DNA of 49,442 bases from a virus: positions 1 through 49,442 of the IMG/VR virus record IMGVR_UViG_3300010167_000030, one strand, 5' to 3'. Position numbers and translations under genes: made by a program. The notes under the pieces are model-generated. The model saw nothing but the letters and a program-made list of their open reading frames with translations, was not told the DNA's origin and did no database searches. Of the stretch, positions 5,717 to 35,286 are shown in pieces (the stretch's first letter is position 1; each line of letters opens with the position of its first letter).

Positions 5717-5718
5717 CT

Positions 5719-5748
5719 TACGCGAAAAAAACATACTCTATAATGAAC
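5719..5748 (+). promoter_or_regulatory. Phage promoter-like motif copy P3
   Basis: CGCG(5721)-AAAAAA-ACA-TACTC-TATAAT-GAAC. Directly precedes the 108-nt structured RNA. Confidence 0.6.
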
Positions 5749-5856: not shown

Positions 5857-5861
5857 TATTT

Positions 5862-5891
5862 TTCGCGCTATTTACAATGTCTGTAATGAAG
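5862..5891 (+). promoter_or_regulatory. Phage promoter-like motif copy P4
   Basis: CGCG(5864)-CTATTT-ACA-ATGTC-TGTAAT-GAAG. Confidence 0.55.
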
Positions 5892-5904
5892 GGAGTGATA
5901 TTTT

Positions 5905-6045
5905 ATGAATAATGAGAAAGCGATTGTATTTATTGGGTTAGCTGTTAGTTTTATATCAACATTAATAATTGGTTGGACTAACGGTCGATTAACGAAAATG
6001 GCAGTCACAAAATTAGTAGAAGAAGCACTTGCAAAAAGAAATTAA
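5905..6045 (+). CDS. Small (46-aa) single-TM peptide
   Basis: Not in the ORF track (<60 aa). MNNEKAIVFIGLAVSFISTLIIGWTNGRL.... Has the shared GGGAGTGATATTTTATG leader and is followed by a terminator. Confidence 0.5.
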   Translation: MNNEKAIVFIGLAVSFISTLIIGWTNGRLTKMAVTKLVEEALAKRN

Positions 6046-6056
6046 AAACGGAGAAG

Positions 6057-6078
6057 GACTCTTAATAAGAGTCTTTTT
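6057..6078 (+). terminator. Rho-independent terminator
   Basis: GACTCTT-AAT-AAGAGTC followed by TTTTT. Confidence 0.7.
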
Positions 6079-6103
6079 CTTTATATTTTTGAAAGGAGAA
6101 ACA

Positions 6104-7198: not shown

Positions 7199-7247
7199 AA
7201 AATGTGATGTTTAAAGAAAAAGCAAAACGGATAAGGAGGTGATATTT

Positions 7248-7745
7248 ATGACGGAAAAGAAGAAATGTATAGGGTGCCAGACTGAACTTAAATTAGGGAA
7301 ATTCGCCTATAACCAAGAACTTTGTTGGGATTGCTTCAATAAAGAGATCCAGATTATTCTTAAACGAATTGATTGTTATCCATCATGGTTTTGGGGAAAG
7401 CGGGAACTACACAAAAGTATTATCAAGCATATGCAAGCATGTATGGTTATGATATTTAGAGGGGATGGTCAAAAAGTTACATATCATAAAGAAGTCAAAT
7501 TTAATACTAAAAAAGAAGCCGAAGCAGTTTTATCCGATATGAAAGAAATAATAGAGAGTTATGGGTTTATTGCTTTAGGCGGGTTATATTATTTAATCGC
7601 ACTTCCTTCAACCGAAGAAGATAATAAATATGGTTGGATTAATCTTAGTGAGGCTAAAATTAATCGAATAAAAGATGGGTATTTGCTTACTTTACCACGA
7701 CCAATTCTATTAGGTCAAGAAACGCAATTGAAAGGGGAAAAATAA
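7248..7745 (+). CDS. Hypothetical protein with N-terminal CxxC..CxxC and conserved C-terminal domain (paralog set C, copy 1)
   Basis: C-terminus EAEAVLSDMKEIIESYGFIALGGLYYLIALPSTEEDNKYGWINLSEAKINRIKDGYLLTLPRP aligns with the C-terminus of 8477-9184. Confidence 0.75.
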   Translation: MTEKKKCIGCQTELKLGKFAYNQELCWDCFNKEIQIILKRIDCYPSWFWGKRELHKSIIKHMQACMVMIFRGDGQKVTYHKEVKFNTKKEAEAVLSDMKEIIESYGFIALGGLYYLIALPSTEEDNKYGWINLSEAKINRIKDGYLLTLPRPILLGQETQLKGEK

Positions 7746-7746
7746 A

Positions 7747-8061
7747 ATGAAATTTGATATTTCATATGAAGATTTCTGGGGTTATTATAAAAGCGCATTA
7801 TTAGAAGATATTGAAAAAGCAAATCTTATCATAGATAAACTAAGTGACGAGGAGGATAAAGATATTCTTAAAACTTTGCTAAATTCCTTGAGCAAGGAAA
7901 TTATTACTACGGTCGAGGGAATACTTGATTTTGCAAAGGAAGATAGCCTTCCAAAGCCAAAAAGCGAATACGGGAAGAGGATGAGAGCCAATCTCGCAAT
8001 AACCGAATACAAGCAGAAGATGATGCCTGATTTAGCAGAAGGTGATAAAAACTTTGATTAG
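7747..8061 (+). CDS. Hypothetical acidic protein
   Basis: 104-aa ORF starting 1 nt after the upstream stop. Confidence 0.65.
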   Translation: MKFDISYEDFWGYYKSALLEDIEKANLIIDKLSDEEDKDILKTLLNSLSKEIITTVEGILDFAKEDSLPKPKSEYGKRMRANLAITEYKQKMMPDLAEGDKNFD

Positions 8062-8065
8062 TAAA

Positions 8066-8095
8066 CGCGCGCGAAAAACATACCCTTTAATGAAG
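8066..8095 (+). promoter_or_regulatory. Phage promoter-like motif copy P5
   Basis: CGCG(8068)-CGAAAA-ACA-TACCC-TTTAAT-GAAG. Confidence 0.55.
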
Positions 8096-8137
8096 AAAAC
8101 CAAATAAAATTTCTATTATTGAAAGGAGAAAAATAAA

Positions 8138-8476: not shown

Positions 8477-9184
8477 ATGGACGAATACAGATCAAACTCG
8501 CACGAATCAAAAGAAGAAAAAATATATTTCGATCCAATAGAAAACAAAATTAAAAAGATGGTTATGGATAAGGAAAAGTCTAAAATGGAAAAACAATACA
8601 AATCAAACTCGCACGAATCAAAAGAAAGAACCGACGAATCCATTCCAAATAAAAAAATCGAAAAAGTAGTTAAAGGAGAAGTTAGATCCAGAAAGAAAAA
8701 CGAACTTCAAAAGTTTACAGATGTCTTTATATCCGAGGATGTGGGTAATCTTAAAGATTATATTTTTATTGAGGTACTTGTCCCGGCAATTAAAAAAGGA
8801 ATCTATGATGTTGTTACAAATGGCATTGATATGATTCTTTATCGTGGAACCGGAAAAAGAAAAAATTTCTCGCCTTCGAAGATATCCTATAAAGATTATA
8901 GTGATGACCGTAGCAGGAGAAATAATTATTCGGGGCCGAGCGTGACTAATTATGAAAATATTATCATAGAGAGTCGAGGAGAAGCGGAAGACGTTTTATA
9001 TCGAATGGATGAATTAATAGATGAATTCGGTTTGGTTAGCGTGGCTGATTTATACGATTTAGTCGGTATTTCGGGAAATTATACAGATAATAGATACGGT
9101 TGGACTGATATTCTGAGTGCCAAAGCAGTTCCTGTAAGAGACGGATATATTCTTAAATTGCCAAGGGCGCTAGCATTCAAATAA
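8477..9184 (+). CDS. Hypothetical protein (paralog set C, copy 2) with internal 31-nt direct repeat
   Basis: C-terminus EAEDVLYRMDELIDEFGLVSVADLYDLVGISGNYTDNRYGWTDILSAKAVPVRDGYILKLPRA. The N-terminus contains Y(R/K)SNSHESKE twice (DNA 8485-8515 and 8596-8626). Confidence 0.8.
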   Translation: MDEYRSNSHESKEEKIYFDPIENKIKKMVMDKEKSKMEKQYKSNSHESKERTDESIPNKKIEKVVKGEVRSRKKNELQKFTDVFISEDVGNLKDYIFIEVLVPAIKKGIYDVVTNGIDMILYRGTGKRKNFSPSKISYKDYSDDRSRRNNYSGPSVTNYENIIIESRGEAEDVLYRMDELIDEFGLVSVADLYDLVGISGNYTDNRYGWTDILSAKAVPVRDGYILKLPRALAFK

Positions 9185-9207: not shown

Positions 9208-10161
9208 ATGGATAAATTAAACATTATAAACGGCATGAACAAAACTTTTGCGAGAGTAAATTTTCAGGTAATGAAACATAGTCCTGAAATTTTTCTTATT
9301 GCCGGATTATGTGGAGTGGTCGCCAGTACGGTCATGGCGTGCAAGGCAACTACAAAAATTAATACCATTCTTAGCAACCATAAAAAAGATATTGAGACAA
9401 TTCACACTTATGCTGAAGACGAATCTTATAAAGAAGAATATTCAGAGGAAGACAGCAAAAAGGATTTACTAATTGTCTACACGCAAACCGCTTTTAAATT
9501 CTTAAAACTCTACGGTCCGGCAGTCGCCGTTGGAATTTTGTCAATCGGATGTATATTAGCATCCAATAATATTATGCGTGCCAGAAACATAGCTCTTGCA
9601 AGCGCATATGCCACGATAGATAAAGGTTTCAAGGAATATCGGAATCGAGTTATTGAGCGTTTTGGGAAGGACGTCGATCACGAACTAAAATACAACATAA
9701 AAGCAAAGAAATTCGAAGAAACTATCGTCGATGAAAAAGGAAAAGAAAAGAAAGTCGAGAAAGCCGTTGATATTGCAAATCTTGATTATTGTAGCGAGTA
9801 CGCCCGTTTCTTTGATGCAGCATCGAGACATTGGGAGGATAATTCCGAGTACAATTTAATGTACGCTCGCCTTCAGCAGCAATATGCAAATAATTTACTT
9901 CGGTCTAGGGGATATTTATTTTTGAATGAGGTATATAACATGTTTGATATTCCGATTTCGAAGGCCGGGCAAATTGTCGGGTGGACCTATGATTTAAAAA
10001 ACCCTAAAGGCGATAATTATGTTGACTTCGGAATTTATAAAGCAAGTATTGAAAAATTGGATAATACTGATTTTGTCAACGGTTACGAACCGGCAGTATT
10101 ACTGGACTTTAATGTCGATGGTGATATTTGGAGCACAATAGAGCATTCATTAAAAAAGTAA
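9208..10161 (+). CDS. Two-TM membrane protein (paralog set A, copy 3)
   Basis: KHSPEIFLIAGLCGVVASTVMACKAT...NIALASAY...EYRNRVIERFG...LNEVYNMFDIPISKAGQIVGWTY. Confidence 0.8.
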   Translation: MDKLNIINGMNKTFARVNFQVMKHSPEIFLIAGLCGVVASTVMACKATTKINTILSNHKKDIETIHTYAEDESYKEEYSEEDSKKDLLIVYTQTAFKFLKLYGPAVAVGILSIGCILASNNIMRARNIALASAYATIDKGFKEYRNRVIERFGKDVDHELKYNIKAKKFEETIVDEKGKEKKVEKAVDIANLDYCSEYARFFDAASRHWEDNSEYNLMYARLQQQYANNLLRSRGYLFLNEVYNMFDIPISKAGQIVGWTYDLKNPKGDNYVDFGIYKASIEKLDNTDFVNGYEPAVLLDFNVDGDIWSTIEHSLKK

Positions 10162-22212: not shown

Positions 22213-22249
22213 ATATTTTTAACAGATGAATATTAGTGTTTTTATAAGG

Positions 22250-22274
22250 CCTATATCGCTTGATATGGGTTTTT
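22250..22274 (+). terminator. Rho-independent terminator
   Basis: CCTATATC-GCTT-GATATGGG (one U-G pair) followed by TTTTT. Confidence 0.65.
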
Positions 22275-22292
22275 ATATTTGGTAAAATTTGT

Positions 22293-22322
22293 CACGCGAA
22301 AAAAACATTCACTTTAATGAAG
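22293..22322 (+). promoter_or_regulatory. Phage promoter-like motif copy P6 (upstream of the nuclease and RNAP-candidate genes)
   Basis: CGCG(22295)-AAAAAA-ACA-TTCAC-TTTAAT-GAAG. A degenerate second copy follows at about 22327-22356. Confidence 0.55.
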
Positions 22323-22382
22323 AAAGAGGCATTTTTCTAAAAAAAAGCACTTTCTTTAATTCTTGTTTGGGAGGTCCTTATT

Positions 22383-22670
22383 TTGGAAAAAGATTTTCAA
22401 AAAGCACTCATCAAAGAACTGAAAGAAAAGTTCGATGGATGTATTGTTATGAAAAACGATTCGAATTATATTCAAGGAATCCCGGACATACTTGTGCTTT
22501 ATAAAAACAAGTGGGCGGCATTAGAGTGTAAAGAAAATAAGAAAGCTAAGAAAAGGGCAAACCAAGAATACTATATTCAACGAATGAACAAAATGTCATT
22601 TTCGAGTTTTATTTATCCGGAGAATAAGGAGGAAGTATTAAATGAACTTCAACGATCATTCAGAACTTGA
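22383..22670 (+). CDS. VRR-NUC-type nuclease
   Basis: QGIPDILVLYKNKWAALECKE...ANQEYYIQRM fits the G-x-PD...E-x-K...Q pattern. TTG start after GGGAGG. Confidence 0.6.
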   Translation: MEKDFQKALIKELKEKFDGCIVMKNDSNYIQGIPDILVLYKNKWAALECKENKKAKKRANQEYYIQRMNKMSFSSFIYPENKEEVLNELQRSFRT

Positions 22671-23199
22671 AGGAGATCATGCTTTTCTTAGCCCAAGTAA
22701 ATATCATTGGATTAATTATGACGAATTGAAATTAGCAGAATCATATTCCAAATTTATGGCGACGCAAAAGGCAGTTGTCATTCATTCGTTCGCGGCTACG
22801 TGTATCGACCTTGGGCAGAAATTACCTAAATCACAAAAGACATTAAACACATATGTGAACGATGCTATTGGATATAAGATGACGCCAGAACAAGTTTTAT
22901 ATTATTCCATAAATTGTTTTGGGACGGCCGATACAATTTCGTTTCGTAACGGTCAACTTAGAATTCATGATTTGAAAACCGGAGTAGTTCCCGCCAACAT
23001 GGGGCAATTAGAAATTTATACTGCTCTTTTCTGTTTGGAATATACGAAGAATCCTAATGATATTGAGATAGAATTAAGGCTTTATCAAAATAATGAAATT
23101 ATATTTCACCATCCTGATCCAAAAGAAATTACTTTAATAGTCGATAAAATAATTAAATTCGACAAAGTAATAAACCAAATCAAAGAACGGGAGGAATAA
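22642..23199 (+). CDS. PD-(D/E)XK (Cas4/RecB-like) nuclease
   Basis: GTADTISF..GQLRIHDLKTG....MGQLEIYTALF fits D...D-x-K...Q..Y. Confidence 0.6.
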   Translation: MNFNDHSELEGDHAFLSPSKYHWINYDELKLAESYSKFMATQKAVVIHSFAATCIDLGQKLPKSQKTLNTYVNDAIGYKMTPEQVLYYSINCFGTADTISFRNGQLRIHDLKTGVVPANMGQLEIYTALFCLEYTKNPNDIEIELRLYQNNEIIFHHPDPKEITLIVDKIIKFDKVINQIKEREE

Positions 23200-23202
23200 T
23201 CC

Positions 23203-25848
23203 ATGAACACAATCGCAAGAGAAATCCTGACGCATTATGGAATGCCTAGACGTTCTGGACGATATCCTTATGGTTCTGGGGATAATCCCTATCAACGAAG
23301 TGGCGATTTTTTAAGCCGAATAGAAGAGTTAAAAAAAGAGGGGAAAACCGATAAAGATATTTATGAATTAATGGGGCTTAAATCATCTGAATATAGAATT
23401 CAAAAAGCATTGGCGAACGACGAAAGAAGGTCACTTCTGGTTTCTCAAGCAAAAGCATTAAAAGATAAAGGATATAGTTTAAAAGAAATTACAAGAAGAA
23501 TGGGATATTCGAGCGATTCATCAGTAAGATCCCTTCTTGATGAAAGAGCAGAAGGTAGAATGAATCAAGCAAGGAACACTGCCGACATTCTTAAAAAAGA
23601 GATTGATAAAAAAGGAATGATCGATGTTGGCATAGGCGTAGAAAAAGAACTTAACATTTCTTCGGAAATGAAAAAACAAGCATTATATTTACTTGAGATG
23701 GAAGGGTATCCTGTTTACGGCGGACGTCGTTCGCAAATCACTAACCCAGGAAAGAAAACTACTTTACTAATTGCATGTCCTCCCGGTACTGAGCATAAGG
23801 AAATTTTTAATGCTGAAAACGTTCATTCCCTTAAGGATTATATTTCTTATGATGGCGGCTATACATATAAAAAACCGTTCGTCTACCCAAAGAGTATGGA
23901 TTCGAATCGTATTAAAATTAATTATGCGGAAGAAGGAGGGGATAAGGAAGATGGGCTTATTTATATTCGTAGAAACGTAGAAGATTTAAGTTTAGGGAAA
24001 GCTCACTATGCGCAAGTAAGAATTCTTGTAGATAATGATAAGTATTTAAAAGGGATGGCCGTTTATTCGGATAATATGCCAGATGGCATTGATGTTATAT
24101 TTAATACTAATAAAAAAATAGGAACGGATAAATCAAAAGTTTTTAAATCGATTAGTAATGATCCAAATAATCCATTCGGATCTCTTATAAAAGAAAAAGG
24201 AGGTCAAAGTTATTATCTGGATAAAAATGGAGTGGACCAGTTATCGTTAATAAATAAAAGAGCCGAAGAAGGAGACTGGAAAGATTGGTCTAATAAATTA
24301 GCTTCTCAATTTTTATCAAAACAAAATAAAGCTTTAATAGATAAACAATTGAATTTGACAATCGCCGATAAAATGGAAGAATTTGATGAGATTCGTTCGT
24401 ATACAAACCCAACAATTAAGAAAATACTGTTAAACTCTTTTGCTGACGATTGCGATGCTGCCGCGGTTCATTTAAAAGCTACCGCGTTGCCGAGACAGCA
24501 ATATCATGTCATTTTGCCAATTACCACAATGAAAGATAACGAAGTATATGCTCCGAATTATGAAAATGGAGAAAAATTAGCACTCGTAAGATTTCCACAC
24601 GGAGGAACTTTTGAAATACCAATTCTTACCGTTAATAACAAACAGCAGGATGCCAAAAAAATACTTGAAAATAGCATAGATGCTATAGGCATTAATAGTC
24701 AAGTAGCTTCGAGGCTATCGGGGGCTGACTTTGACGGCGATGCAGTAATGACTATACCGATTACTAATAAAATAAAAATCAGTCACGAGCCTCCATTGAA
24801 AGAACTTGAAGGATTTGACGTTAAATTAGAGTATCCATATCGAGAAGGCATGAAAAAAATGACGAACACCCAAAACGAAATGGGCAAAATCACGAATCTA
24901 ATTACTGATATGACCTTAAAAGGAGCAACTAAAGAAGAATTAGCAAAAGCCGTTAAACATAGTATGGTTGTAATAGATGCTGAGAATCATAATCTTAACT
25001 ATAAACAGAGTGAAATCGACAATAATATTTCTGCTTTAAAAACGCGTTATCAAGAAGGCGGAGCTTCAACGTTACTGTCAAGGGCTAAATCACGAACGAC
25101 AATAATTAAGAGACGAGGAAGCCCTAAAATCAATCCGCAAACTGGAGAATTAGAATGGAAAGAGACGGAAAATCCGACATATGTAGACGAAAAAGGAAAA
25201 ATTAAAACAAAAACTCAAAGAAGTACAAAAATGGCCGAAACAAAAGATGCTAGAACATTGTCTTCGGGGACTCCACAAGAAGAAGCATACGCCATATATG
25301 CTAATAAAATGAAAGCCATGGCCAACGAAGCCCGTAAAGAAATGATTACTACTAAAAAGATACAATACTCCCCCTCTGCGAAAGCCGTATACCAGCAAGA
25401 AGTTAATTCGTTATTAGCTCAACTTAATATAGCATTAAAGAATGCCCCTCGTGAACGACAAGCTCAAGGCCTTGCCGGCGTTGCCGTGGCCGATAGGATT
25501 AAAGGAATTAAAGACATTAAAAAGAAAGAACTTAAGAAACTTAATCAACAAGCCATTACCGCTACTAGAATAACAGTTGGCGCCCAAAGACATCCCATTA
25601 AAATTTCAGATCGAGAATGGGAAGCGATTCAAGCTGGAGCAATTAGTGAGAATATGCTTATTAAAATTATTAAAAATGCTAATATTGATGAACTTAAAGT
25701 TCGAGCTACTCCACGAGCTACAACAAACTTGAGCGCTGCTAAAATTAATAAAATTTCTTCTATGAATTCTTCTGGTTACACAATTAAAGAAATCGCAAAA
25801 GCTATTAATGTATCAACTTCGACCGTATCCAAGTATTTAAAAAATTGA
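23203..25848 (+). CDS. Candidate single-subunit double-psi-beta-barrel RNA polymerase (YonO-like)
   Basis: LVRFPHGGTFEIPILTV...IGINSQVASRLSGADFDGDAVMTIP. The GADFDGD sits at DNA 24721-24741 and matches the NADFDGD metal loop of beta-prime and the DxDGD of YonO/RdRP-type enzymes. HTH-like segments near both termini. Confidence 0.6.
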   Translation: MNTIAREILTHYGMPRRSGRYPYGSGDNPYQRSGDFLSRIEELKKEGKTDKDIYELMGLKSSEYRIQKALANDERRSLLVSQAKALKDKGYSLKEITRRMGYSSDSSVRSLLDERAEGRMNQARNTADILKKEIDKKGMIDVGIGVEKELNISSEMKKQALYLLEMEGYPVYGGRRSQITNPGKKTTLLIACPPGTEHKEIFNAENVHSLKDYISYDGGYTYKKPFVYPKSMDSNRIKINYAEEGGDKEDGLIYIRRNVEDLSLGKAHYAQVRILVDNDKYLKGMAVYSDNMPDGIDVIFNTNKKIGTDKSKVFKSISNDPNNPFGSLIKEKGGQSYYLDKNGVDQLSLINKRAEEGDWKDWSNKLASQFLSKQNKALIDKQLNLTIADKMEEFDEIRSYTNPTIKKILLNSFADDCDAAAVHLKATALPRQQYHVILPITTMKDNEVYAPNYENGEKLALVRFPHGGTFEIPILTVNNKQQDAKKILENSIDAIGINSQVASRLSGADFDGDAVMTIPITNKIKISHEPPLKELEGFDVKLEYPYREGMKKMTNTQNEMGKITNLITDMTLKGATKEELAKAVKHSMVVIDAENHNLNYKQSEIDNNISALKTRYQEGGASTLLSRAKSRTTIIKRRGSPKINPQTGELEWKETENPTYVDEKGKIKTKTQRSTKMAETKDARTLSSGTPQEEAYAIYANKMKAMANEARKEMITTKKIQYSPSAKAVYQQEVNSLLAQLNIALKNAPRERQAQGLAGVAVADRIKGIKDIKKKELKKLNQQAITATRITVGAQRHPIKISDREWEAIQAGAISENMLIKIIKNANIDELKVRATPRATTNLSAAKINKISSMNSSGYTIKEIAKAINVSTSTVSKYLKN

Positions 25849-25867
25849 AAGGAGTGAACAAAGTAAA

Positions 25868-26107
25868 ATGACTTATGCAATAACAACGCATGACAATCCT
25901 TATGACCCGTTTGAACAGTTCCTTCCTTGGTTTCTGTTCGATGAAGAAAAAGGATATCACTCTTGTTCTCGTTTAGGAAGGATTGCACAAACATCCAATC
26001 AGTATTCAGAGCAAGAAAACGATCAAGAAATAGAAAGAGCAATTGATGAAATCATTAAATACGATATTTTGAATGTTTATAAGAAAGTAAAAAGGAGAAG
26101 GCAGTAG
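25868..26107 (+). CDS. Hypothetical protein
   Basis: 79-aa ORF with an RBS upstream. Confidence 0.65.
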   Translation: MTYAITTHDNPYDPFEQFLPWFLFDEEKGYHSCSRLGRIAQTSNQYSEQENDQEIERAIDEIIKYDILNVYKKVKRRRQ

Positions 26108-26131
26108 AGGGCATCACATCCTAATGGGTAT

Positions 26132-26158
26132 GGGGGGTATTTTAAAGCGACACCCCCC
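26132..26158. repeat. G7/C7 inverted repeat in the pre-terminase spacer
   Basis: GGGGGGT (26132-26138) and ACCCCCC (26152-26158). GC-rich island in an AT-rich genome. Confidence 0.8.
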
Positions 26159-26260
26159 TGTCCCATCGCGCTCACCTCATGAAATACCCCGGTGGTGATA
26201 TTTTTAGGTAGTAAAAAAACCGAGGGTAATAATTAAGCTCATACTTTTGTTTACGATAGC

Positions 26261-26362
26261 ATTTAAACGGGTTCGTAGCGTTGATTACTAGCACATGTCT
26301 TTTTTTCTCTTGCTCTCCTTTCAAAGAAAAGAGGCATATCAATTCTGCGAACTCGTTTAAAT
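26261..26362. repeat. 15-bp long-range inverted repeat in the pre-terminase spacer (cos/pac or late-control candidate)
   Basis: ATTTAAACGGGTTCG (26261-26275) against CGAACTCGTTTAAAT (26348-26362), 14 of 15 complementary. Confidence 0.75.
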
Positions 26363-26404
26363 ACTATTTAAGTCGTTTTATTTGGAGAAAGGAGGAGGAA
26401 GAAT

Positions 26405-26749
26405 ATGAAAAAAGCGAAAACAATAAGTTCTTCCTCTGACACAAAAAAGGTAAGGCCTGCATTAACACCAGAGGCTAGGGAGAATCAATTAGTATGTCTG
26501 GCAGTTGACCTCGCCGAACAACAATTAATCGATGGAACTGCCTCTTCGCAAGTTATTACGCATTATTTAAAACTAGGATCGACAAAAGATCGAATCGAGA
26601 AAGAGATTCTTGAAAAGCAGAAAGAACTTATTGCAGCAAAAACGGAATCACTACAATCAGCAAAGCGAGTCGAGGAACTCTATATTAATGCACTTAATGC
26701 GATGAGGTCATATACAAGCGTTCAAGGAGGAGATGAAGAGTATGATTAG
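26405..26749 (+). CDS. Putative terminase small subunit
   Basis: 114 aa. First gene after the 300-bp spacer, immediately upstream of HNH. The ENQLVCLAVDLAEQQLIDGTASSQVITHYLKLGS pattern is one I recall from small-terminase annotations. Positional and weak. Confidence 0.45.
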   Translation: MKKAKTISSSSDTKKVRPALTPEARENQLVCLAVDLAEQQLIDGTASSQVITHYLKLGSTKDRIEKEILEKQKELIAAKTESLQSAKRVEELYINALNAMRSYTSVQGGDEEYD

Positions 26750-27158
26750 ATGTTATAGAGAACTTATTCTCCTACCTACTTTCGAAGAACGTTTTGAGTA
26801 TTTAAGGCTCGGGGCAATGGTCGCTCAAGAAACATTTGGTTATAGTCGATATTTAAATCAGGTTTTGTATACGTCTCTTTTATGGAGACAAACAAAAGAT
26901 GAAATCTTAATTCGCGATAACGGATGCGACCTTGGAATTATTGGAAGAGAGATATTTGATCGGCCACTAATTCATCATATCAATCCAATAACCATGGAGA
27001 ACATTAAGAATCGAGATGACTGTATCATTGATCCCGAAAATCTTATAACCACCGTTCACAATACCCATAACGCAATACATTATGGCGATGCATCATTACT
27101 AATAAGATTACCACCGGAAAGAAAGAAAGGAGATACCAATTTATGGAAAGTATATTGA
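26742..27158 (+). CDS. HNH endonuclease (packaging-associated)
   Basis: DNGCDLG...IHHINPIT...NLITTVHNTHNAIH. ATG at 26742 is better spaced from GAGGAG than 26733. Confidence 0.8.
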   Translation: MIRCYRELILLPTFEERFEYLRLGAMVAQETFGYSRYLNQVLYTSLLWRQTKDEILIRDNGCDLGIIGREIFDRPLIHHINPITMENIKNRDDCIIDPENLITTVHNTHNAIHYGDASLLIRLPPERKKGDTNLWKVY

Positions 27159-27502
27159 CTTCGATAAAAAAACTTCTTGGCATCGAAAAAGAATACGAAC
27201 ACTTTGATTCTGAGTTGATAGTCTTTATTAATGGCGCCTTAATGAATGCAAACCAATTAGGAATAGGCCCAAAAGAAGGTTTCTTCATAACCGGCGATTC
27301 TGAAACATGGGAGGATTTCGTTGGAAATCGAATAGCAGAGCTTGAGGCAATTCAGACGTACGTCTTTCAGAAAGTGAAGTTGGCTTTCGACCCTCCTCAA
27401 ATTGGATTTTTAGTTGATGCTTTGCAGAAACAAATACTTGAACTTGAATGGCGATTAAACGTTCAAATAGAAACGCCAAAGGAGAAGGAGGAAGAGAAAT
27501 GA
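27143..27502 (+). CDS. Putative head-tail connector (gp6-like) protein
   Basis: ILTSIKKLLGI..EYEHFDSELIVFINGALMNANQLGIGP...WRLNV resembles phage gp6-like connector/DNA-packaging proteins. From memory. Confidence 0.45.
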   Translation: MESILTSIKKLLGIEKEYEHFDSELIVFINGALMNANQLGIGPKEGFFITGDSETWEDFVGNRIAELEAIQTYVFQKVKLAFDPPQIGFLVDALQKQILELEWRLNVQIETPKEKEEEK

Positions 27503-27897
27503 ACAGCGAGTTAACTCATTACGGCATCCTCGGTATGAAATGGGGGATAAGGCGTTTTCAGAATTCCGACGGATCTCGAACTGCTGAAGGAAGAAAACGA
27601 GAAGCAATGAAGAAAATTAAAGATCAGCGAATTAAAGATAAAAAATATCGTTCTTTAATGTCAGACGAAGAATTATTTAGAAAGCTAGGACGCTTAGAAA
27701 AAGAAAAGAAATTTCGCGAACTTACGCAACAAGAAGTTGCACCAGGTCGTACGGCAGCTTCAAAGATTCTTAAAGATATAGGAAGAACTGCTGTTGTAAC
27801 GGTTGGAGTTGGCGCTAGTGTATATACAGTTAGAGCCGTGTTACAAAAGAAATTCGATCCCAAAGAATTAGCCAGGGCGCTTACGCCAAAAAAATAA
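27499..27897 (+). CDS. THYGILGMKWG-motif protein 1 (basic, C-terminal hydrophobic helix)
   Basis: ATGA-coupled start. N-terminus MNSELTHYGILGMKWGIRRFQNSDGSRTAEGRKR. C-terminus GRTAVVTVGVGASVYTVRAVL. Confidence 0.75.
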   Translation: MNSELTHYGILGMKWGIRRFQNSDGSRTAEGRKREAMKKIKDQRIKDKKYRSLMSDEELFRKLGRLEKEKKFRELTQQEVAPGRTAASKILKDIGRTAVVTVGVGASVYTVRAVLQKKFDPKELARALTPKK

Positions 27898-27898
27898 A

Positions 27899-28267
27899 TT
27901 ATTTAGGAACGAGTTTACTAATTTCTTTTACTAATTTTGGTCCCTCGTTCGACACTACTTTAATGCCTTCTTTGATAGCTTCGGCAGCTTTTGGCATAGC
28001 AACTATTGTGGTAGGAATTACTGTTATAGCATTTTTAGCGAGTTGTATCCGTTTTTCTTTAAGTTTTTCATCTTTAGCAATGCAAGAAGGACAAAAGGGC
28101 TCGTCTTTATCGGTAATTGGTAAAAGCGCATAGCATCTTCTTTTTCTGCAAACATATTGGAGATCGTTTTTACAAAATGGACAATACTTATAACTCATGT
28201 TGAATTTAGTTTTGGTTTTATTGGCGTCGCATTCTCGATTAAAACATCCTTTTTGCTTTTTCATCAT
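27899..28267 (-). CDS. Zinc-ribbon protein (the only minus-strand gene)
   Basis: 122 aa. CFNREC..(18)..CPFC..(9)..C...(17)..CPSC. AAGGAG RBS and its own sigma-A-type promoter. Confidence 0.75.
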   Translation of the reverse strand: MMKKQKGCFNRECDANKTKTKFNMSYKYCPFCKNDLQYVCRKRRCYALLPITDKDEPFCPSCIAKDEKLKEKRIQLAKNAITVIPTTIVAMPKAAEAIKEGIKVVSNEGPKLVKEISKLVPK

Positions 28268-28298
28268 TTAATCTCCTTTGCATAATGGGTGTTTAATA

Positions 28299-28327
28299 AT
28301 ATTATCATCAAAAGGAGGAAATTACAA
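28299..28327 (-). promoter_or_regulatory. Canonical sigma-A-type promoter for the antisense zinc-ribbon gene
   Basis: On the minus strand: TTGTAA, 17-nt spacer ending in TGa, then TAATAT. The -35 overlaps the ATG of the + strand gene at 28327. Confidence 0.55.
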
Positions 28328-28863
28328 TGGCTAATAATGAACTCACACACTATGGGATCCTCGGAATGAAATGGGGAGTTAGAAGGTATCAGAATCCAGA
28401 TGGGTCTTTAACCGAAGTAGGTAAAAAACGCGTTGGAAAAATCGCAAAAAGCGCTGGAAGAAGCTATGCGACCTCGGCTAACATTAGAAAAGATACATTA
28501 AAAGTAGTAAGAGAATCGAAGAAAAGCGCTAAAGAAGCAGAAGAATTTAGTCGAGAACATGCGAAAAAAGGAAATAAAATAAGATCTTGGATTGGCGCTG
28601 CCTCGGCGTACTATAATAAACAGGATGCGAAAGAGATGAGAAGTATTGGGTTAAAAGATGCGAAGAGATGGATCGAATATGGAGACTATAGAAAACAAAA
28701 AGCTTACGATTTTGTTGACAAATACAATAAAGGAAATAAAAAAACAAAAAAATTAGTCGACGCCACGATTCAACAATATTCTAATACATCTTACAAATTA
28801 TTTACGACCAATTATCAAAACGATCTTAAAAAACAAGTACAAGGAATAAGAGCGGTTAGATAA
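28327..28863 (+). CDS. THYGILGMKWG-motif protein 2 (Lys-rich)
   Basis: N-terminus MANNELTHYGILGMKWGVRRYQNPDGSLTEVGKKR. Confidence 0.8.
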   Translation: MANNELTHYGILGMKWGVRRYQNPDGSLTEVGKKRVGKIAKSAGRSYATSANIRKDTLKVVRESKKSAKEAEEFSREHAKKGNKIRSWIGAASAYYNKQDAKEMRSIGLKDAKRWIEYGDYRKQKAYDFVDKYNKGNKKTKKLVDATIQQYSNTSYKLFTTNYQNDLKKQVQGIRAVR

Positions 28864-28896: not shown

Positions 28897-30642
28897 ATGG
28901 CACTCTCAAACACCGCCGTTCCCAAGTATTACGGCTTGTTTAGAGATGCCGTAATCCAAGGATACATTCCTGTAAATAAAGAAATCTCAATGGAGATGAA
29001 TCGTATCGATGATTTAATTGAAAACCGAGGAGTTTATTACGATGAAGATGCAATTGAAGGGTATGTTCAATTTTGTGAATGCGAATTGACTCTTACAGAT
29101 GGTTCTAATTTAAAACTTCTCGATACTTTTAAATTATGGGCAGAGCAAATATTTGGTTGGTACTATTTTGTAGAACGAAGTGTTTATGAACCAACCGAAG
29201 ATGGTTATGGCGGGCGCTATGTCCGTAAGATGATTAAAAAGCGACTGACGAATAAACAATATTTGATTGTTGCCCGTGGCGCTGCTAAATCGATGTATGG
29301 GTCCTCTATCCATAATTACTTTCTTAATGTCGATACGACTACCACGCATCAAATTACAACGGCCCCTACTATGAAACAAGCCGAAGAAGTAATGTCTCCA
29401 ATACGTACCGCTATTACACGGGCACGCGGTCCTTTGTTTCAATTTTTAACCGAGGGGTCGCTACAGAATACTACGGGTTCTAGGGCAAATCGACAGAAGC
29501 TCGCTTCGACTAAAAAAGGGATTGAGAACTTTTTAACCGGATCGCTACTTGAGGTCAGGCCCATGTCAATCGATAAGCTACAAGGTTTAAGGCCAAAGAT
29601 TTCAACCATTGATGAATGGCTTTCCGGCGATATTCGAGAGGATGTTGTCGGAGCAATCGAGCAAGGGGCTTCCAAGCTTGATGACTATTTAATTATTGCA
29701 ATGAGTTCTGAAGGCACGGTTCGAAATAGTTCGGGCGATACAATTAAAATGGAATTAATGGAGATTCTTAAAGGAGACTACGTTAATCCTCATGTTTCTA
29801 TTTGGTATTACCGATTAGATGACGTAATAGAGATAAATGACCCGGCAACCTGGGTAAAAGCTCAACCAAACATTGGGAAAACCGTTACATACGAAGCCTA
29901 TCAACTTGATGTAGAGAGAGCTGAAAACGCTCCGGCGACAAGAAACGATATTTTGGCAAAACGTTTCGGGATTCCGATGGAGGGCTATACTTATTACTTC
30001 ACTTATGAAGAAACGCTTCCGCATCGTGTGCGGGATTATTGGCAACTGCCTTGTGCATTAGGAGGAGACCTGTCACAAGGAGATGACTTTTGTTCGTTTA
30101 CATTTTTGTTCCCTTTGCAGAATGGGTGTTTTGGCGTTAAGACTCGTAACTATATTTCATCGTTAACATTAATGAAATTACCAGCAGCAATGAGAATCAA
30201 ATATGATGAGTTTATTAACGAAGGAAGTTTAATGATACTTGATGGCACAGTTTTAGACATGATGGAAGTGTACGATGACTTGGATGAGCATATTACTGAA
30301 CGTGGTTATGACGTTCGTTGTTTTGGATATGATCCGTATAACGCAAAAGAATTTATTGAAAGGTGGGCGGCCGAGAACGGGCCCTTTGGGATTGAGAAAG
30401 TAATTCAAGGAATAAAAAGTGAATCCGTGCCATTAGGAGAATTAAAGAAGCTCTCAGAAGAAAGAATGTTGTTGTTCGACGAAGAATTAATGACTTTTGC
30501 CATGGGCAACTGCATAACTTTAGAAGACACAAATGGTAATAGGAAATTGCTCAAGAAAAGGCAATCGCAAAAAATTGATGCTGTCGCGGCTATGATGGAC
30601 GCGTATATTGCCTATAAACGAAATCGAGATGCTTTTGAGTAA
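28897..30642 (+). CDS. terL: Terminase large subunit
   Basis: 581 aa. Walker-A-like LIVARGAAKSMYGS, then a C-terminal nuclease region with acidic motifs (GGDLSQGDDF, FGYDPYNA, IDAVAAMMDA). Position is consistent. Confidence 0.85.
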   Translation: MALSNTAVPKYYGLFRDAVIQGYIPVNKEISMEMNRIDDLIENRGVYYDEDAIEGYVQFCECELTLTDGSNLKLLDTFKLWAEQIFGWYYFVERSVYEPTEDGYGGRYVRKMIKKRLTNKQYLIVARGAAKSMYGSSIHNYFLNVDTTTTHQITTAPTMKQAEEVMSPIRTAITRARGPLFQFLTEGSLQNTTGSRANRQKLASTKKGIENFLTGSLLEVRPMSIDKLQGLRPKISTIDEWLSGDIREDVVGAIEQGASKLDDYLIIAMSSEGTVRNSSGDTIKMELMEILKGDYVNPHVSIWYYRLDDVIEINDPATWVKAQPNIGKTVTYEAYQLDVERAENAPATRNDILAKRFGIPMEGYTYYFTYEETLPHRVRDYWQLPCALGGDLSQGDDFCSFTFLFPLQNGCFGVKTRNYISSLTLMKLPAAMRIKYDEFINEGSLMILDGTVLDMMEVYDDLDEHITERGYDVRCFGYDPYNAKEFIERWAAENGPFGIEKVIQGIKSESVPLGELKKLSEERMLLFDEELMTFAMGNCITLEDTNGNRKLLKKRQSQKIDAVAAMMDAYIAYKRNRDAFE

Positions 30643-30655
30643 AGGAGGAATAATC

Positions 30656-31543
30656 ATGTGGGCTTATAACTATACCATATACCCTTCCGAGTTGTATCAT
30701 CATGGGGTTCTTGGAATGCGGTGGGGTAAAAGAAATGGCCCACCTTATCCTCTTGGAACAGAGGGGCGTCAAGCAAATAGAAGAGTATTTAGGAGAGAAG
30801 GTCGATCGGATGCGCCAAAAGAAAAATCTAAACATCGATCGAGATTAGAAGAGCGTTATCGTAGCAAGGGAATGAATCAATCAGAAGCCGAAAAAGCAGC
30901 TGCTAAAAGGATTAAAATTGAGAAAATTATAGCTGTTGCTGGCGTAATGACAGTTACTGCGGCTACGGCTTATGTGATACATAAGAAACTTGGGAAAGAA
31001 AAATTCGGAGGAATACTAAATAAATCAGTGTCAGAGATTACAAAACATGGTAAACTAAATTTACCAACGTGGGAACGTATTCCGACTACGAAAGAGGCTT
31101 TAAAAGCTTCTAATCCTTCTGGGCATACGAAAAATTGCGTAGGTTCGGTTCTTGCATTTGAATTAAATAAACAGGGGTATAAAGTAGAGGCCCTTTCTAG
31201 CAATACTCTCAGTTTAAAGGCTGTTTGCGATATTTTTGGTAAAAAAGCTAGCGATGTTAAAACCATTTCTTCAGAAACTGATAAAATCAAAGAACTTAAA
31301 CGAGTGTCGAATAGCTGGGGAGAAGGCTCAAGAGGATTTTTAGGTCTTTATATGAAAAACGGAGACCATCATGCGGCCGCTTTCGAGAGGGCGTTGCAAA
31401 AAACAGATTTCTTAGACCCACAAACAAAAAATGGTAATTTCGAAAAAGTTGTTGCTTCAGCGGAAAAGATTATATATTTTCGAATGGATAATGCGAATTT
31501 TGTAGAAGAAGCGATTTTACCATTTATAAAGAAATCAATCTAA
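30656..31543 (+). CDS. HHGVLGMRWG-motif protein 3: basic region + TM + papain-fold (Tox-PL1-like) C-terminal domain
   Basis: ELYHHGVLGMRWGKRNGPPYPLG. TM helix IIAVAGVMTVTAATAYVI. NPSGHTKNCVGSVLAFELNKQG (Cys) ... GDHHAAAFE (His) ... DFLDPQT. Confidence 0.7.
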   Translation: MWAYNYTIYPSELYHHGVLGMRWGKRNGPPYPLGTEGRQANRRVFRREGRSDAPKEKSKHRSRLEERYRSKGMNQSEAEKAAAKRIKIEKIIAVAGVMTVTAATAYVIHKKLGKEKFGGILNKSVSEITKHGKLNLPTWERIPTTKEALKASNPSGHTKNCVGSVLAFELNKQGYKVEALSSNTLSLKAVCDIFGKKASDVKTISSETDKIKELKRVSNSWGEGSRGFLGLYMKNGDHHAAAFERALQKTDFLDPQTKNGNFEKVVASAEKIIYFRMDNANFVEEAILPFIKKSI

Positions 31544-31551
31544 AACATTAT

Positions 31552-31581
31552 TACGCGTTAATAACACCTCCTTTTATGAAA
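31552..31581 (+). promoter_or_regulatory. Phage promoter-like motif copy P7 (inside the late region)
   Basis: CGCG(31554)-TTAATA-ACA-CCTCC-TTTTAT-GAAA, in exact register with P0-P6. Confidence 0.45.
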
Positions 31582-31616
31582 AACATTGAATTAAAATTTA
31601 AAGGAGGAAATGAACT

Positions 31617-33492: not shown

Positions 33493-35286
33493 ATGGAACC
33501 ATATGATTTTAGTGGTTGGGCTACCAGAAATAATCTTAGATGCTCTGACGGGAGAACAATTTTGAAAGACGCTTTTAAAGGAAACGACGGACAGAAAGTT
33601 CCCTTGGTTTGGAATCATCAACACAATGAACCGTTTAATGTTTTAGGCCATGCTCTGTTGGAAAATCGCGATAGCGGCGTATATGCATATTGCATATTTA
33701 ATGGAACGGAATCCGGCCAAAACGCAAAACTTATAGTCGAGCATGGAGATGTTTTATCGCTTTCCATTTATGCTAATCAACTTAAACAGCAAGGTGGAAA
33801 TGTATTTCATGGATCTATTCGAGAAGTAAGTCTCGTTCTTGCGGGAGCAAACCCAGGGGCTTTTATTGATTCGGTATTAAGCCATGGAGAAGAAGCTAGC
33901 GAAGAAGAGGCTATTATTTATACCGGAGAAAACATTGCCCTATATCATGCAGACGATAAAAAACAAGAAGATATTCCCAACCAAAATACTTTAGAAGGAG
34001 ATGGAACGATGATTGGAAAAGAAGAAGCCTTAGCACACGCGGAGGTAGAGAGTAGAAAAGATGAAAGCGAAGAAACCGTTGCTGATGTTTTTAATACCCT
34101 AACCGAGAAACAGAAAACTGTAGTATATGCAATGATTGGTCAGATCGCCGAAGAAGTGAGTGGAGAAGATGAAGAAGGAGAAGGAGATAAAAATATGAAA
34201 CACAACATATTTGATTACGATCAAGAAGATAATAAGGACTATTTAAGCCATGCTGATACGGAAGCGATATTTGCAGATGTCAAACGCTATGGAAGTTTAA
34301 GGGATAGCGTTGCTGCTCATGGTATTGAAAAAATTGATTACTTATTTCCCGATGCCCAGAATGTAACGAATACCCCTCAACTCATACAGCGAGATATGGA
34401 TTGGGTCCGTAGGGTTATGAATGATGTCCATAAAACTCCTTTTTCCAGAATTAAATCCATATTTGCCGATCTTACAGAGGACGAGGCAAGAGCAAAAGGC
34501 TATATAAAAGGCAAAGCAAAGAAAGAAGAAGTTTTCTCGTTGCTTAAACGCACAACAACTCCGCAAACAATCTATAAAAAGCAGAAAATAGATCGTGATG
34601 ATGTAATTGACATTACAGACTTTGATGTCGTTGCGTGGATAAAAAGTGAAATGAGAACAATGTTGGATGAAGAAATTGCACGTGCGATTCTCGTTGGGGA
34701 CGGACGTCTTAGTTCTTCCGATGACAAGATCAAAGAAGACAACGTTCGTCCGATTTGGACAGATGCGGAATTGTATACCATTAAGGCTTTGATAGAACTT
34801 CCCGCAACTGCTACCACGGATCAAAAAGCAAAACAATTTATTCGCACTGCCGTTAAAGCTAGAAAGAACTATAAAGGTTCTGGCTCTCCGACTTTGTACA
34901 TAACGGAAGATGTACTTACAGATTGCTTGTTATTAGAAGACCTTAACCAGCGTGTAATTTATGATACGGTTGACAAATTAGCTACTGCTTTACGCGTAAG
35001 AGAGATTATAGCAGTTCCGGTAATGGAGAACCTATCGAGAACGGTAGATGGAAAAACGACCAATCTCATGGGGATAATAGTTAATCTTACCGATTACAAT
35101 ATTGGCGCGGACAAAGGCGGGGCTATAAACATGTTTGACGATTTCGACATCGATTACAATGCTTTGAAATACTTAATTGAAACTCGTTGTTCCGGGGCAT
35201 TAATAAAGCCATACTCTGCAATTGTTTTGGAAGCGACTGCTTCAGAAACAACAGGCGGCGAAGGCGGAGAAGAAGTCTCGGGGTGA
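33493..35286 (+). CDS. Prohead protease (HK97 S78-type) + acidic linker + major capsid protein fusion
   Basis: N-terminus VPLVWNHQH...VLSLSIYA...IREVSLVLAGANPGAFI fits S78/U35 proteases. E-rich segment at aa 135-235. The C-terminal roughly 350 aa is capsid-like (..LDEEIARAILVGDGR..). Confidence 0.7.
   Translation: MEPYDFSGWATRNNLRCSDGRTILKDAFKGNDGQKVPLVWNHQHNEPFNVLGHALLENRDSGVYAYCIFNGTESGQNAKLIVEHGDVLSLSIYANQLKQQGGNVFHGSIREVSLVLAGANPGAFIDSVLSHGEEASEEEAIIYTGENIALYHADDKKQEDIPNQNTLEGDGTMIGKEEALAHAEVESRKDESEETVADVFNTLTEKQKTVVYAMIGQIAEEVSGEDEEGEGDKNMKHNIFDYDQEDNKDYLSHADTEAIFADVKRYGSLRDSVAAHGIEKIDYLFPDAQNVTNTPQLIQRDMDWVRRVMNDVHKTPFSRIKSIFADLTEDEARAKGYIKGKAKKEEVFSLLKRTTTPQTIYKKQKIDRDDVIDITDFDVVAWIKSEMRTMLDEEIARAILVGDGRLSSSDDKIKEDNVRPIWTDAELYTIKALIELPATATTDQKAKQFIRTAVKARKNYKGSGSPTLYITEDVLTDCLLLEDLNQRVIYDTVDKLATALRVREIIAVPVMENLSRTVDGKTTNLMGIIVNLTDYNIGADKGGAINMFDDFDIDYNALKYLIETRCSGALIKPYSAIVLEATASETTGGEGGEEVSG

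Follow-up and report, generated by a model that had tools for sequence, protein, structure and literature searches.

A predicted phage-encoded single-subunit two-barrel RNA polymerase with helix-turn-helix arms and a promoter-like element at the head of its operon

The stretch of DNA analyzed in this study (the window) comprises the 49,442 nt of IMG/VR virus record IMGVR_UViG_3300010167_000030, and the locus of interest lies at positions 22,293–25,848. An 881-aa open reading frame (ORF) of this locus had been read, from the letters alone, as the gene for a phage RNA polymerase (RNAP). The ORF exists, and on sequence its product is a member of the already recognized phage-1706/PHROG 4291 RNAP family, whose prediction was published in 2010 and 2021. 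The catalytic core (approximately aa 230–640) holds two beta-barrels with invariant R-x-P and DxDGD motifs, and predicted helix-turn-helix (HTH) DNA-binding modules flank it at both ends. Taken as a whole, the explanation that we consider fairly likely is that of a two-barrel RNAP that would initiate at a phage-specific sequence motif, reinforce its own expression and perhaps be packaged in part. The gene and its catalytic regions are as follows.

23203–25848, plus strand: predicted two-barrel, single-subunit RNAP of 881 aa with HTH arms; ATG start; phrog_4291, E=0.
23911–24114, plus strand: first (beta-like) beta-barrel, aa 237–304; strands in both structural models; invariant D250, R273, K283-G284, D297, N301, N303 and K304.
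24499–24762, plus strand: second (beta-prime-like) double-psi beta-barrel (DPBB), aa 433–520; R463-x-P465 and metal loop G507-A-D509-F-D511-G-D513.

The catalytic strings quoted in the sequence-only reading occur in the translation of this gene (...KLALVRFPHGGTFEIPILTV...IGINSQVASRLSGADFDGDAVMTIP), with R463-F-P465 followed by D509-F-D511-G-D513 (46 residues from R463 to D509); the gap of 22 aa stated between ILTV and IGIN is actually 17 aa. A family alignment of 39 homologs (39–70% identity to the query), which formed the basis of an AlphaFold2 model, revealed that R463, P465, H466, D509, F510, D511, G512 and D513 are invariant in 39/39 sequences. A second invariant block comprises D250-G251, R256, D261, Y269-A-Q-V-R273, K283-G284, D297, F300-N301 and N303-K304. 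With these residues invariant in the 39 homologs, chance cannot account for the catalytic pattern. The reading as a degenerate HTH protein without catalysis was rejected, since every catalytic residue is invariant across more than 1,000 clusters. The metal loop of cellular beta-prime reads NADFDGD, and the beta-like barrel supplies one Asp and two basic residues (D837/K979/K987 in Rpb2; D709/R738/K743 in QDE-1), the bacterial beta motifs NFEDS and GDKxxxRHGxKG being the reference for the first barrel. By analogy, we infer that D250, R273 and K283 constitute the Asp/basic/Lys triad of the first barrel.

The AlphaFold2 model of the full-length polymerase is confident (mean pLDDT 80.8, pTM 0.65) and beta-rich at aa 237–301 and 433–520. 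Long helices follow the second barrel, the two ends form three-helix bundles, and residues 1–32 are disordered. When this model was compared with the PDB using Foldseek, the top matches were two-barrel polymerases only: QDE-1 (E=5e-8 to 3e-7, probability 1.0, alignments spanning 800–900 columns), Arabidopsis RDR2 (E=2e-3), Pol IV, bacterial beta-prime, msRNAP beta-prime, the crAss-like virion RNAP gp66 (6VR4; E=0.035) and the beta-prime of the AR9 non-virion RNAP (7s01_d; rmsd 4.2 Å over 149 columns). The beta-prime chains align over approximately 150 columns at rmsd 3–5 Å, and phage models labeled RNA-dependent RNA polymerase (RdRP) were matched in BFVD. A core-only model (aa 232–600, pLDDT 72.6) matched QDE-1 (1.7e-6) and maize RDR2 (4.4e-5), as well as dozens of N-domains of p97/VCP and NSF, which are textbook DPBBs; the largest RNAP subunits of cells and poxviruses came next. 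A barrel around GADFDGD, as anticipated from the letters, is thus modeled and matches both beta-prime chains and canonical DPBB domains. With the family match at E=0, the invariant catalytic residues and the fold matches to QDE-1, RDR2 and beta-prime, the earlier assignment of a phage-encoded single-subunit RNAP of the two-barrel class was upheld.

Several observations weigh against this assignment. The global TM-scores of the Foldseek matches are low (0.3–0.4). Searches of PDB sequences with phmmer and hmmsearch gave HTH matches and sub-threshold matches to AR9 beta-prime (E=2.2 and 0.1); since these sequence-only searches were not decisive, the fold comparison was relied on. An alignment by hhalign of the 39-sequence profile with the single sequence of YonO (prophage SPbeta) had a probability of 0.8% and was not meaningful. 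A literature search found biochemistry for no member of the 1706-type family. Weaker sequence evidence nevertheless agrees with the fold: the profile hidden Markov model (HMM) of the core places the segment GINskvaakLSGADFDGDtvlvIP on the catalytic loop of AR9 beta-prime (E=0.1), and 35/39 family members match the Pfam RdRP model PF05183 at E≤10 (best 1.7e-4; the match of the window protein lies outside the top 25).

The late genes of SPbeta are transcribed by YonO, which was shown to be a processive, DNA-dependent enzyme; whether it recognizes promoters by itself or with the help of other factors was not settled in that study (Forrest et al. 2017, PMC5467207). It resembles the window polymerase in size (839 aa), in being a two-barrel RNAP made of one chain, in carrying R-x-P-H followed approximately 43 aa on by DxDGD, and in being encoded by a temperate siphovirus just 5′ of the late genes. 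It differs in having C-terminal CxxC pairs, and in that neither HTH arms nor an N-terminal HYG peptide (described below) are seen in its sequence. The term “YonO-like”, applied earlier to the window protein, needs a correction: the nearest solved structures are QDE-1 and RDR2, and sequence similarity to YonO is confined to the short R-x-P-H and DxDGD motifs. Since the family profile does not detect YonO, the window protein is assigned to a sister family, YonO representing a different family of the same class. By analogy with YonO, the window protein would very probably be a DNA-dependent RNAP that transcribes phage DNA.

QDE-1 and RDR2 have the same two-barrel order in one chain (Foldseek probability 1.0), but these eukaryotic proteins of approximately 1,000–1,400 aa have no HTH arms, are only 10–13% identical to the window polymerase, and act in silencing rather than in promoter-driven transcription. 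The virion RNAPs phi14:2 gp66 (6VR4) and P23-45 gp96 (PMC10770324) have the catalytic fold in common with it, N4 vRNAP being a functional analog among such enzymes. These virion RNAPs are much larger or form fusions with tail proteins, and their genes belong to the structural modules of virulent phages; in contrast, the window polymerase has 881 aa, its gene stands where the replication module ends, and temperate phages also carry it. Should the annotation of the 1706 ortholog described below be correct, this enzyme too would be packaged and could transcribe early genes.

Comparison with PHROG 4291 (“RNA-dependent RNA polymerase”) gave E=0, with residues 2–880 of the 881 matched. Full-length homologs were found by tblastn in 250 deposited phage genomes at 37–49% identity, and 249/250 of these matches span at least 80% of the query. 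Their hosts are Arthrobacter, Gordonia, Streptomyces, Lactococcus, Curtobacterium, Rhodococcus, Microbacterium and Faecalibacterium, and human-gut siphoviruses are also represented; the usual labels are “helix-turn-helix DNA-binding domain protein” or “hypothetical”. In a large protein collection at least 8,000 clusters (90% identity) contain homologs, with a top identity of 69%, and a profile search of a library of 50%-identity representatives returned 1,181 proteins at E≤1e-30, nearly all of 870–1,070 aa and matched end to end. Some homologs lie on bacterial contigs as long as 871 kb. The polymerase core is not covered by any Pfam model, the only matches being those to HTHs at the ends. A megablast search of the locus against deposited phages gave zero matches, so the window phage has no close cultured relative.

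The phage 1706 protein (orf75; 41% identity to the window polymerase, E=3e-138) was placed by Ruprich-Robert & Thuriaux (2010, PMC2919709) in one of five distantly related “YonO-like” families, which have eight invariant residues in common with all two-barrel RNAPs. Koert et al. (bioRxiv 10.1101/842583) described HTHs at both ends, the DxDGD loop and an HHpred match to Pfam RdRP (95.7%), and regarded the gene for this HTH-RdRP-HTH protein as the signature of a phage supercluster that unites actinobacteriophages with Lactococcus and Faecalibacterium phages. The domain order, operon and packaging-side position of the 1706 ORF75 family are all as in the window. The window phage differs in being of gut type, temperate and integrase-bearing, its best database relatives being 69% identical.

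A true RdRP, making double-stranded or antisense RNA during infection, is what the PHROG and GenBank name implies, and QDE-1 and RDR2 as best structural matches and the weak matches of family members to Pfam RdRP agree with it. The name, however, was inherited from the Pfam family and is not assay-based; QDE-1 also accepts DNA templates (PMC9508822), and DNA dependence was found for YonO, the one phage enzyme of this class that has been assayed (PMC5467207). The protein contains several DNA-binding HTH modules, and a double-stranded DNA phage genome has no known need for RNA copying. An RdRP role is thus scarcely credible.

Some family members are longer (P0281, P0322, P0369 and P0372; 1,036–1,068 aa). 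P0281 and P0322 bear a Pfam domain of the 2′,5′-RNA-ligase superfamily (PF13563), and the HYG motif of P0281 comes after a long N-terminal leader; in P0369 and P0372 the match to the family profile begins at approximately residue 165. A polymerase that carries a fused RNA-end-processing domain would fit a role connected with RNA. A second ORF of Streptomyces phage Psst2 (13305–13631; 108 aa), distant from the real polymerase gene, is also labeled “RNA-dependent RNA polymerase”, which is probably an annotation artifact.

The modules that flank the catalytic core are located as follows.

23299–23613, plus strand: helical N-terminal region (aa 33–137) containing two HTH-like units; helices in the model, HTH_28.
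25729–25842, plus strand: C-terminal HTH, aa 843–880; HTH_38 (2.7e-8), HTH_7 (6.2e-7) and HTH_23 (3.2e-6), all above gathering scores.

The N-terminal units lie at approximately aa 47–70 and 89–112, and HTH_28 matches aa 87–118 with 24.7 bits against a cut-off of 25 (33/39 family members match this model). The two segments previously described as HTHs of sigma region-4/LuxR type are present (aa 89–112 and 857–879), but the type itself did not hold: at the C-terminal HTH both Sigma70_r4 (20.0 bits vs 24.1) and GerE (16.6 vs 23.5) remain under the Pfam cut-offs. “Sigma-region-4-like” is therefore too specific, and the protein is better described as carrying several generic HTH modules. Foldseek gave weak matches to LuxR-type (SdiA) and resolvase structures (E>1), and the C-terminal HTH has weak matches to the Terminase_5 and Phage_terminase profiles (generic HTH, low scores). 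The putative recognition helices, ESSVRxLL (N-terminal) and S-T-S-T-[VL]-S (C-terminal), are kept from Lactococcus to Streptomyces phages, a conservation across phyla that parallels that of the DNA motif described below.

The polymerase gene is the third of an operon headed by a copy of a promoter-like motif.

22246–22283, plus strand: terminator-like feature closing the preceding transcription unit (hairpin 22246–22273; 12-pair stem then T-run, consensus scan).
22285–22324, plus strand: promoter-like motif copy at the operon head; core TCACGCGAAAAAAACATTCACTTTAATG at 22292–22319, then GAAGAA; unique exact 28-nt site.
22383–22670, plus strand: operon gene 1, VRR-NUC-type endonuclease (phrog_93, E=5e-18).
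22642–23199, plus strand: operon gene 2, PD-(D/E)XK-like exonuclease (phrog_3953, E=1.9e-75).
25868–26107, plus strand: small conserved ORF 3′ of the polymerase gene (phrog_4303, E=3e-31).

The terminator-like hairpin is directly 5′ of the motif copy, which precedes the start codon of gene 1 by 65 nt, and the three ORFs overlap or abut; the operon (VRR-NUC, PD-(D/E)XK, polymerase) is thus headed by the motif, as had been claimed. The syntenic homolog of gene 1 in Arthrobacter phage Paella carries the annotation VRR-Nuc, and the Pfam matches of the exonuclease ORF are weak (DUF2800; PDDEXK_1, E=0.26). The order endonuclease-exonuclease-polymerase-small ORF is kept, with the small ORF syntenic, in phages P118, Paella, Psst2, Tribby, 1706 and ReqiPepy6, in which the polymerase gene is at or near the right genome end and adjoins the packaging genes.

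A position weight matrix (PWM) was trained on six obvious copies of the motif and used to scan both strands of the window. This analysis revealed nine copies rather than the seven (P1–P7) counted earlier, all nine on the plus strand (25.7–49.1 bits; the next best site on either strand has 7.5), located 18–102 nt 5′ of a Shine-Dalgarno sequence and start codon. The copies outside the polymerase operon, and the tRNA gene that adjoins one of them, are listed below.

1558–1597 and 1618–1657, plus strand: tandem motif copies (30.8 and 45.5 bits); Shine-Dalgarno sequence, and start codon at 1688.
3566–3605, plus strand: motif copy abutting tRNA-Thr (31.1 bits).
3603–3675, plus strand: tRNA-Thr (TGT), identified by ARAGORN.
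5363–5402, 5711–5750 and 5854–5893, plus strand: three motif copies (44.8, 49.1 and 39.8 bits) before small early ORFs, with start codons 18–41 nt 3′.
8058–8097, plus strand: motif copy that opens the replication module (41.4 bits).
31544–31583, plus strand: weaker motif copy before portal and head genes (25.7 bits when left out of the training set).

The 5′ end of tRNA-Thr is placed 4 nt past the TATAAC of the 3566 copy and overlaps the motif tail GAAGAG. No counterpart of the 31544 copy was seen 3′ of the polymerase in the loci of relatives.

Conservation of the motif was examined in 51 related loci fetched via the polymerase (38–64% identity; 637,555 nt), in which the window PWM, at a threshold of 18 bits, gave 58 matches on the coding strand and 0 on the opposite strand. 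The best-conserved copy is 930–990 nt before the polymerase start, just 5′ of the endonuclease gene; the element was found ≤170 nt 5′ of the endonuclease start in 103/130 loci with an endonuclease homolog, in 61 variants. The consensus of the operon copy over related loci is TCGCGAAAAAAACATGCCCTTTTATGAAGAGAG, and the operon-head elements of four cultured phages read as follows.

Streptomyces phage Psst2: CCGTGATCAACACATGTGCTTTAATAGAAGG
Arthrobacter phage Paella: CACGCATATTAAACATCGATTATAATAGAAGG
Arthrobacter phage Tribby: CACGCTAGAATTACACGGGGTATAATGAGGG
Rhodococcus phage ReqiPepy6: CCGCACACAAAACATGGTATATAATAGAAGG

When 2.9 million viral contigs were scanned blind with CGCGAAANNNACANNNNCTNTNATGNAG, at least 120 stretches matched, 80 of which were examined: 76/80 carry marker genes of this phage group, with the endonuclease gene approximately 90–120 nt 3′ on the same strand in 51 and the polymerase in 41. 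The simplest reading of this group-specific, strand-specific and gene-proximal signal is that it is a promoter. Promoters of T7 type are similar in being phage-specific, approximately 25–30 bp long, on one strand, before genes, and conserved to the probable start; this likeness concerns promoter layout and not ancestry, since T7 RNAP has an unrelated right-hand fold.

Several features of the motif argue against a plain primary-sigma promoter. No −35 hexamer is conserved with it, and the CGCG...ACA block falls in the would-be spacer. At the −10-like site the motif reads T[ATG]T[AT]AT; in most operon copies this hexamer is TTTTAT or TGTTAT, with no A at position 2, where factors of the sigma-70 type need one. 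Conservation runs on into GAAG(A/G)G, and the start of tRNA-Thr, 4 nt past the hexamer, is too close for the usual spacing of a sigma-70 start site. A consensus scan found 14 sigma-70-like sites against 17.1 expected from shuffled sequences. A plain sigma-70 promoter was therefore rejected, there being no such enrichment and the conserved positions lying off the −35/−10 requirements. No sigma factor or obvious regulator was found among the window ORFs of at least 90 aa. Because the motif is kept in phages of hosts from two phyla, a phage-encoded reader is pointed to, and the polymerase is the only conserved phage protein that combines a polymerase core with DNA-binding modules. The chance that the 881-aa enzyme initiates at the motif is, judged from such comparisons, about even. 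In that case initiation would occur at a phage-specific element of approximately 30 bp, CGCGAAAwwwACA-N5-CTnT(A/T)AT|GAAG, the HTH arms touching CGCG...ACA and transcription starting at or just after the G following TAAT. As one such element stands before the enzyme’s own operon, expression would become self-reinforcing once some enzyme exists.

Other results count against initiation by the enzyme. Searches of Lactococcus phages P118 and 1706 gave no convincing full-length copy, merely a repeat resembling the upstream half of the motif, and several related loci of approximately 50% GC are without a PWM match. A phage regulator, possibly a small one, that acts with host RNAP could give the same conservation. 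The backing for the proposal that the HTH modules may read the CGCG...TAAT motif is circumstantial: the motif is conserved across phyla and nearly exclusive to the group. Possible autocatalysis through copy P6 has circumstantial backing too, from the element at the operon head in 103/130 loci.

These results bear on a different arrangement, in which the enzyme would be a non-virion late polymerase in the manner of YonO, made early or middle and transcribing the packaging and structural genes across joined cos ends from a different promoter, while host RNAP reads the motif and CGCG...ACA is the operator of a phage regulator. YonO is non-virion, its late genes form one long operon and its own gene lies just 5′ of it; the window polymerase gene is directly 5′ of the packaging and structural genes, and occupies the cos-proximal right end in relatives. 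The window phage has an integrase, several of the motif copies, which cluster in the early region, carry a good or perfect TATAAT, and a sigma-70-like site (TTGATA-17-TAAAAT, 22260–22288) overlaps the terminator just 5′ of the operon copy. Against this arrangement, the operon copy usually has TTTTAT or TGTTAT with no conserved −35, and the same 30-bp element occurs in phages of Clostridia-type gut, Arthrobacter, Streptomyces and Rhodococcus hosts. The close tRNA-Thr start, the number of sigma-70-like sites, not above shuffles, and the search for a regulator or sigma factor described above tell against it as well, and we regard it as rather unlikely.

The N-terminus of the polymerase, which had been noted to resemble three proteins of the packaging module, contains a short peptide (HYG peptide) that is compared below with DUF7211 (PF23847), a 25-residue N-terminal motif with a Pfam gathering score of 27.

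23218–23280, plus strand: HYG peptide of the polymerase, aa 6–26, REILTHYGMPRRSGRYPYGSG; predicted disordered.
27499–27897, plus strand: DUF7211 protein 1, N-terminus ELTHYGILGMKWGIRR (PF23847, 31.5 bits).
28327–28863, plus strand: DUF7211 protein 2, directly 5′ of TerL (PF23847, 40.4 bits).
30608–31543, plus strand: DUF7211 protein 3 (PF23847, 29.9 bits); motif at aa 27–42 of the listed ORF.

As its motif sits at aa 27–42, the true start of DUF7211 protein 3 is probably internal. The family consensus of the HYG peptide is L.HYG..R.SGRYPWGSG (H11, G13, S18, G19 and R20 invariant in the 39 homologs), within a near-invariant polymerase start, [DE]-x-L-x-H-Y-G-[ILV]-x-R-[KR]-S-G-R-Y-P-W-G-S-G. 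The polymerase matches the first half ([DE]EL.HYG[IV].) of the DUF7211 consensus, [DE]-E-L-x-H-Y-G-V-K-G-M-K-W-G-V-R-K. The resemblance stands to the extent that hhalign of the polymerase N-terminal alignment with DUF7211 N-termini gave 93.9% probability over 12 columns, but the polymerase N-terminus did not match the DUF7211 HMM at E≤10, a window DUF7211 protein scoring 33.4 bits alongside. DUF7211-type ORFs occur beside the polymerase wherever the packaging module is visible; a literature search on DUF7211 found no papers. The DUF7211 paralogs (HYGxxGMKWGxRR; three in the window) have otherwise unrelated bodies and fill the interval connector-TerL-portal, and five such ORFs surround TerL and portal in Psst2 (23494–28610).

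The most telling observation comes from the original GenBank record of phage 1706, in which both the polymerase ortholog orf75 and orf7 (DUF7211-type, just 5′ of TerL, N-terminus DILQHRGVIGMRWGKGRK) are labeled “structural protein”. Because two small ORFs within the replication region bear the same label, it suggests virion detection rather than genome position. In their phage papers the depositors reportedly assign “structural protein” by mass spectrometry of purified particles; the secondary literature on 1706 does not describe a structural proteome, and a literature search on Arthrobacter phages found neither virion proteomics nor promoter motifs.

The HYG peptide, shared with the DUF7211 proteins, may steer part of the enzyme into the capsid, from which it would enter with the DNA; that a fraction of the enzyme is packaged is a tentative idea, somewhat less probable than its opposite. 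Apart from the failure to match the DUF7211 HMM, the hhalign probability is inflated, since both N-terminal sets were selected by a regular expression on H-x-G, and the “structural protein” note of ReqiPepy6 merely echoes the 1706 label. The window phage encodes an integrase and has a circularly closed genome, and homologs occur on the large bacterial contigs, so induction of a prophage must start without packaged enzyme. The earlier suggestion of packaging and injection thus keeps a detectable shared N-terminal peptide as circumstantial support, but the integrase argues against an obligate virion enzyme. In temperate members, the first enzyme after induction would come from host transcription or read-through. 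A bolder form of the explanation, which we think unlikely, is that these siphoviruses are transcriptionally self-sufficient across phyla, with promoter reading by HTH modules without sigma, an operon driven by its own product and capsid delivery via the HYG peptide. The group would then span phages of gut Firmicutes, Lactococcus, Arthrobacter, Gordonia, Streptomyces and Rhodococcus (>250 cultured members), and the DUF7211 paralogs of the packaging module would use the same capsid-targeting signal.

The enzyme might instead have a non-transcriptional role, either in primer or RNA synthesis on single-stranded DNA with the operon nucleases, or as a packaging accessory at cos ends with HTH arms like those of a small terminase, in which case it would be found in virions merely through staying bound to the DNA end. 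The conserved two-nuclease operon is compatible with this, as are the distance of approximately 0.5 kb or less between the polymerase gene and the cos terminus in ReqiPepy6, the weak Terminase_5 and Phage_terminase matches of the C-terminal HTH, the repeat arrays near the polymerase gene in 1706, Tribby, P118 and ReqiPepy6, and the fact that no small terminase was identified in the packaging module of the window. QDE-1, the closest structure, uses single-stranded DNA and RNA (PMC9508822). The window phage, however, already has a large primase-polymerase, the terminase-profile matches are generic HTH matches with low scores, and a genome-wide, strand-specific and gene-proximal motif would be left unexplained, which makes such a role improbable. 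Transcription of phage DNA remains the preferred function.

In four phages the short direct-repeat arrays lie between genes, close to the polymerase operon and to the right end of the genome; they may be origin, cos or regulator sites.

Phage 1706, record 51634–52081: CTATCACGAAAAAACTTCGGG x3, resembling the upstream half of the motif.
Tribby, 45700–46000: GTGGCCAAAA-type repeats.
P118, 2221–2648: CCCGGAAAA-type repeats.
ReqiPepy6, 5796–6092: GGGGTGTTTT-type repeats.

In the window, the small ORF that follows the polymerase gene is succeeded by a 300-bp gap (26108–26404) with a G/C-rich inverted repeat (GGGGGGTATTTTAAAGCGACACCCCCC). By analogy with ReqiPepy6, whose cos terminus is at the equivalent place, this gap may be the cos region.

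Positions 1–123 of the window are identical to 49320–49442, so the contig closes to a circle of approximately 49.3 kb. The 123-bp repeat holds a sequence like the 3′ end of a tRNA (GGTTCGAATC...TACCA) and adjoins the integrase gene, which suggests a temperate phage whose attP overlaps a tRNA gene. Further features of the genome are given below.

270–1445: tyrosine integrase (phrog_1, 1e-72).
4651–5367, 6029–6931 and 9208–10161: early-region paralogs of phrog_2152.
7239–7745 and 8477–9184: early-region paralogs of phrog_4079.
27899–28267, minus strand: ORF of 122 aa, the one minus-strand ORF of any size within the otherwise plus-strand packaging module; it contains several CxxC pairs, and its C-terminal part is hydrophobic.
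33493–35286: 597-aa “head maturation protease” (phrog_3270, 4e-223), whose C-terminal half matches Phage_capsid and major-head-protein profiles.

Several of the phrog_2152 and phrog_4079 paralogs are 3′ of motif copies, and the protease-capsid fusion is likewise annotated in 1706 and Tribby.

Beyond the cited papers, this analysis links the enzyme and the promoter-like element across phyla, with the element also heading the enzyme’s own operon, and adds the kinship of the N-terminal peptide with DUF7211 proteins of the packaging module and the overlooked virion annotation of the 1706 ortholog. At the least, the annotation of this polymerase gene family (“helix-turn-helix DNA-binding protein”) needs correcting. 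Promoter recognition by single-chain two-barrel RNAPs is an acknowledged gap, and the present family is tractable, having HTH modules of its own, a sharp candidate promoter and hundreds of cultured phages, many of them SEA-PHAGES isolates, which make the question of how YonO-like enzymes find promoters concretely testable. Should the enzyme read the motif, it would exemplify a compact RNAP of cellular-type fold that is specific for a promoter yet independent of sigma, which would bear on the evolution of transcription and might provide an orthogonal expression tool for Gram-positive bacteria. If it is also packaged, virion-RNAP biology would extend to ordinary siphoviruses, and a capsid-targeting peptide would be defined.

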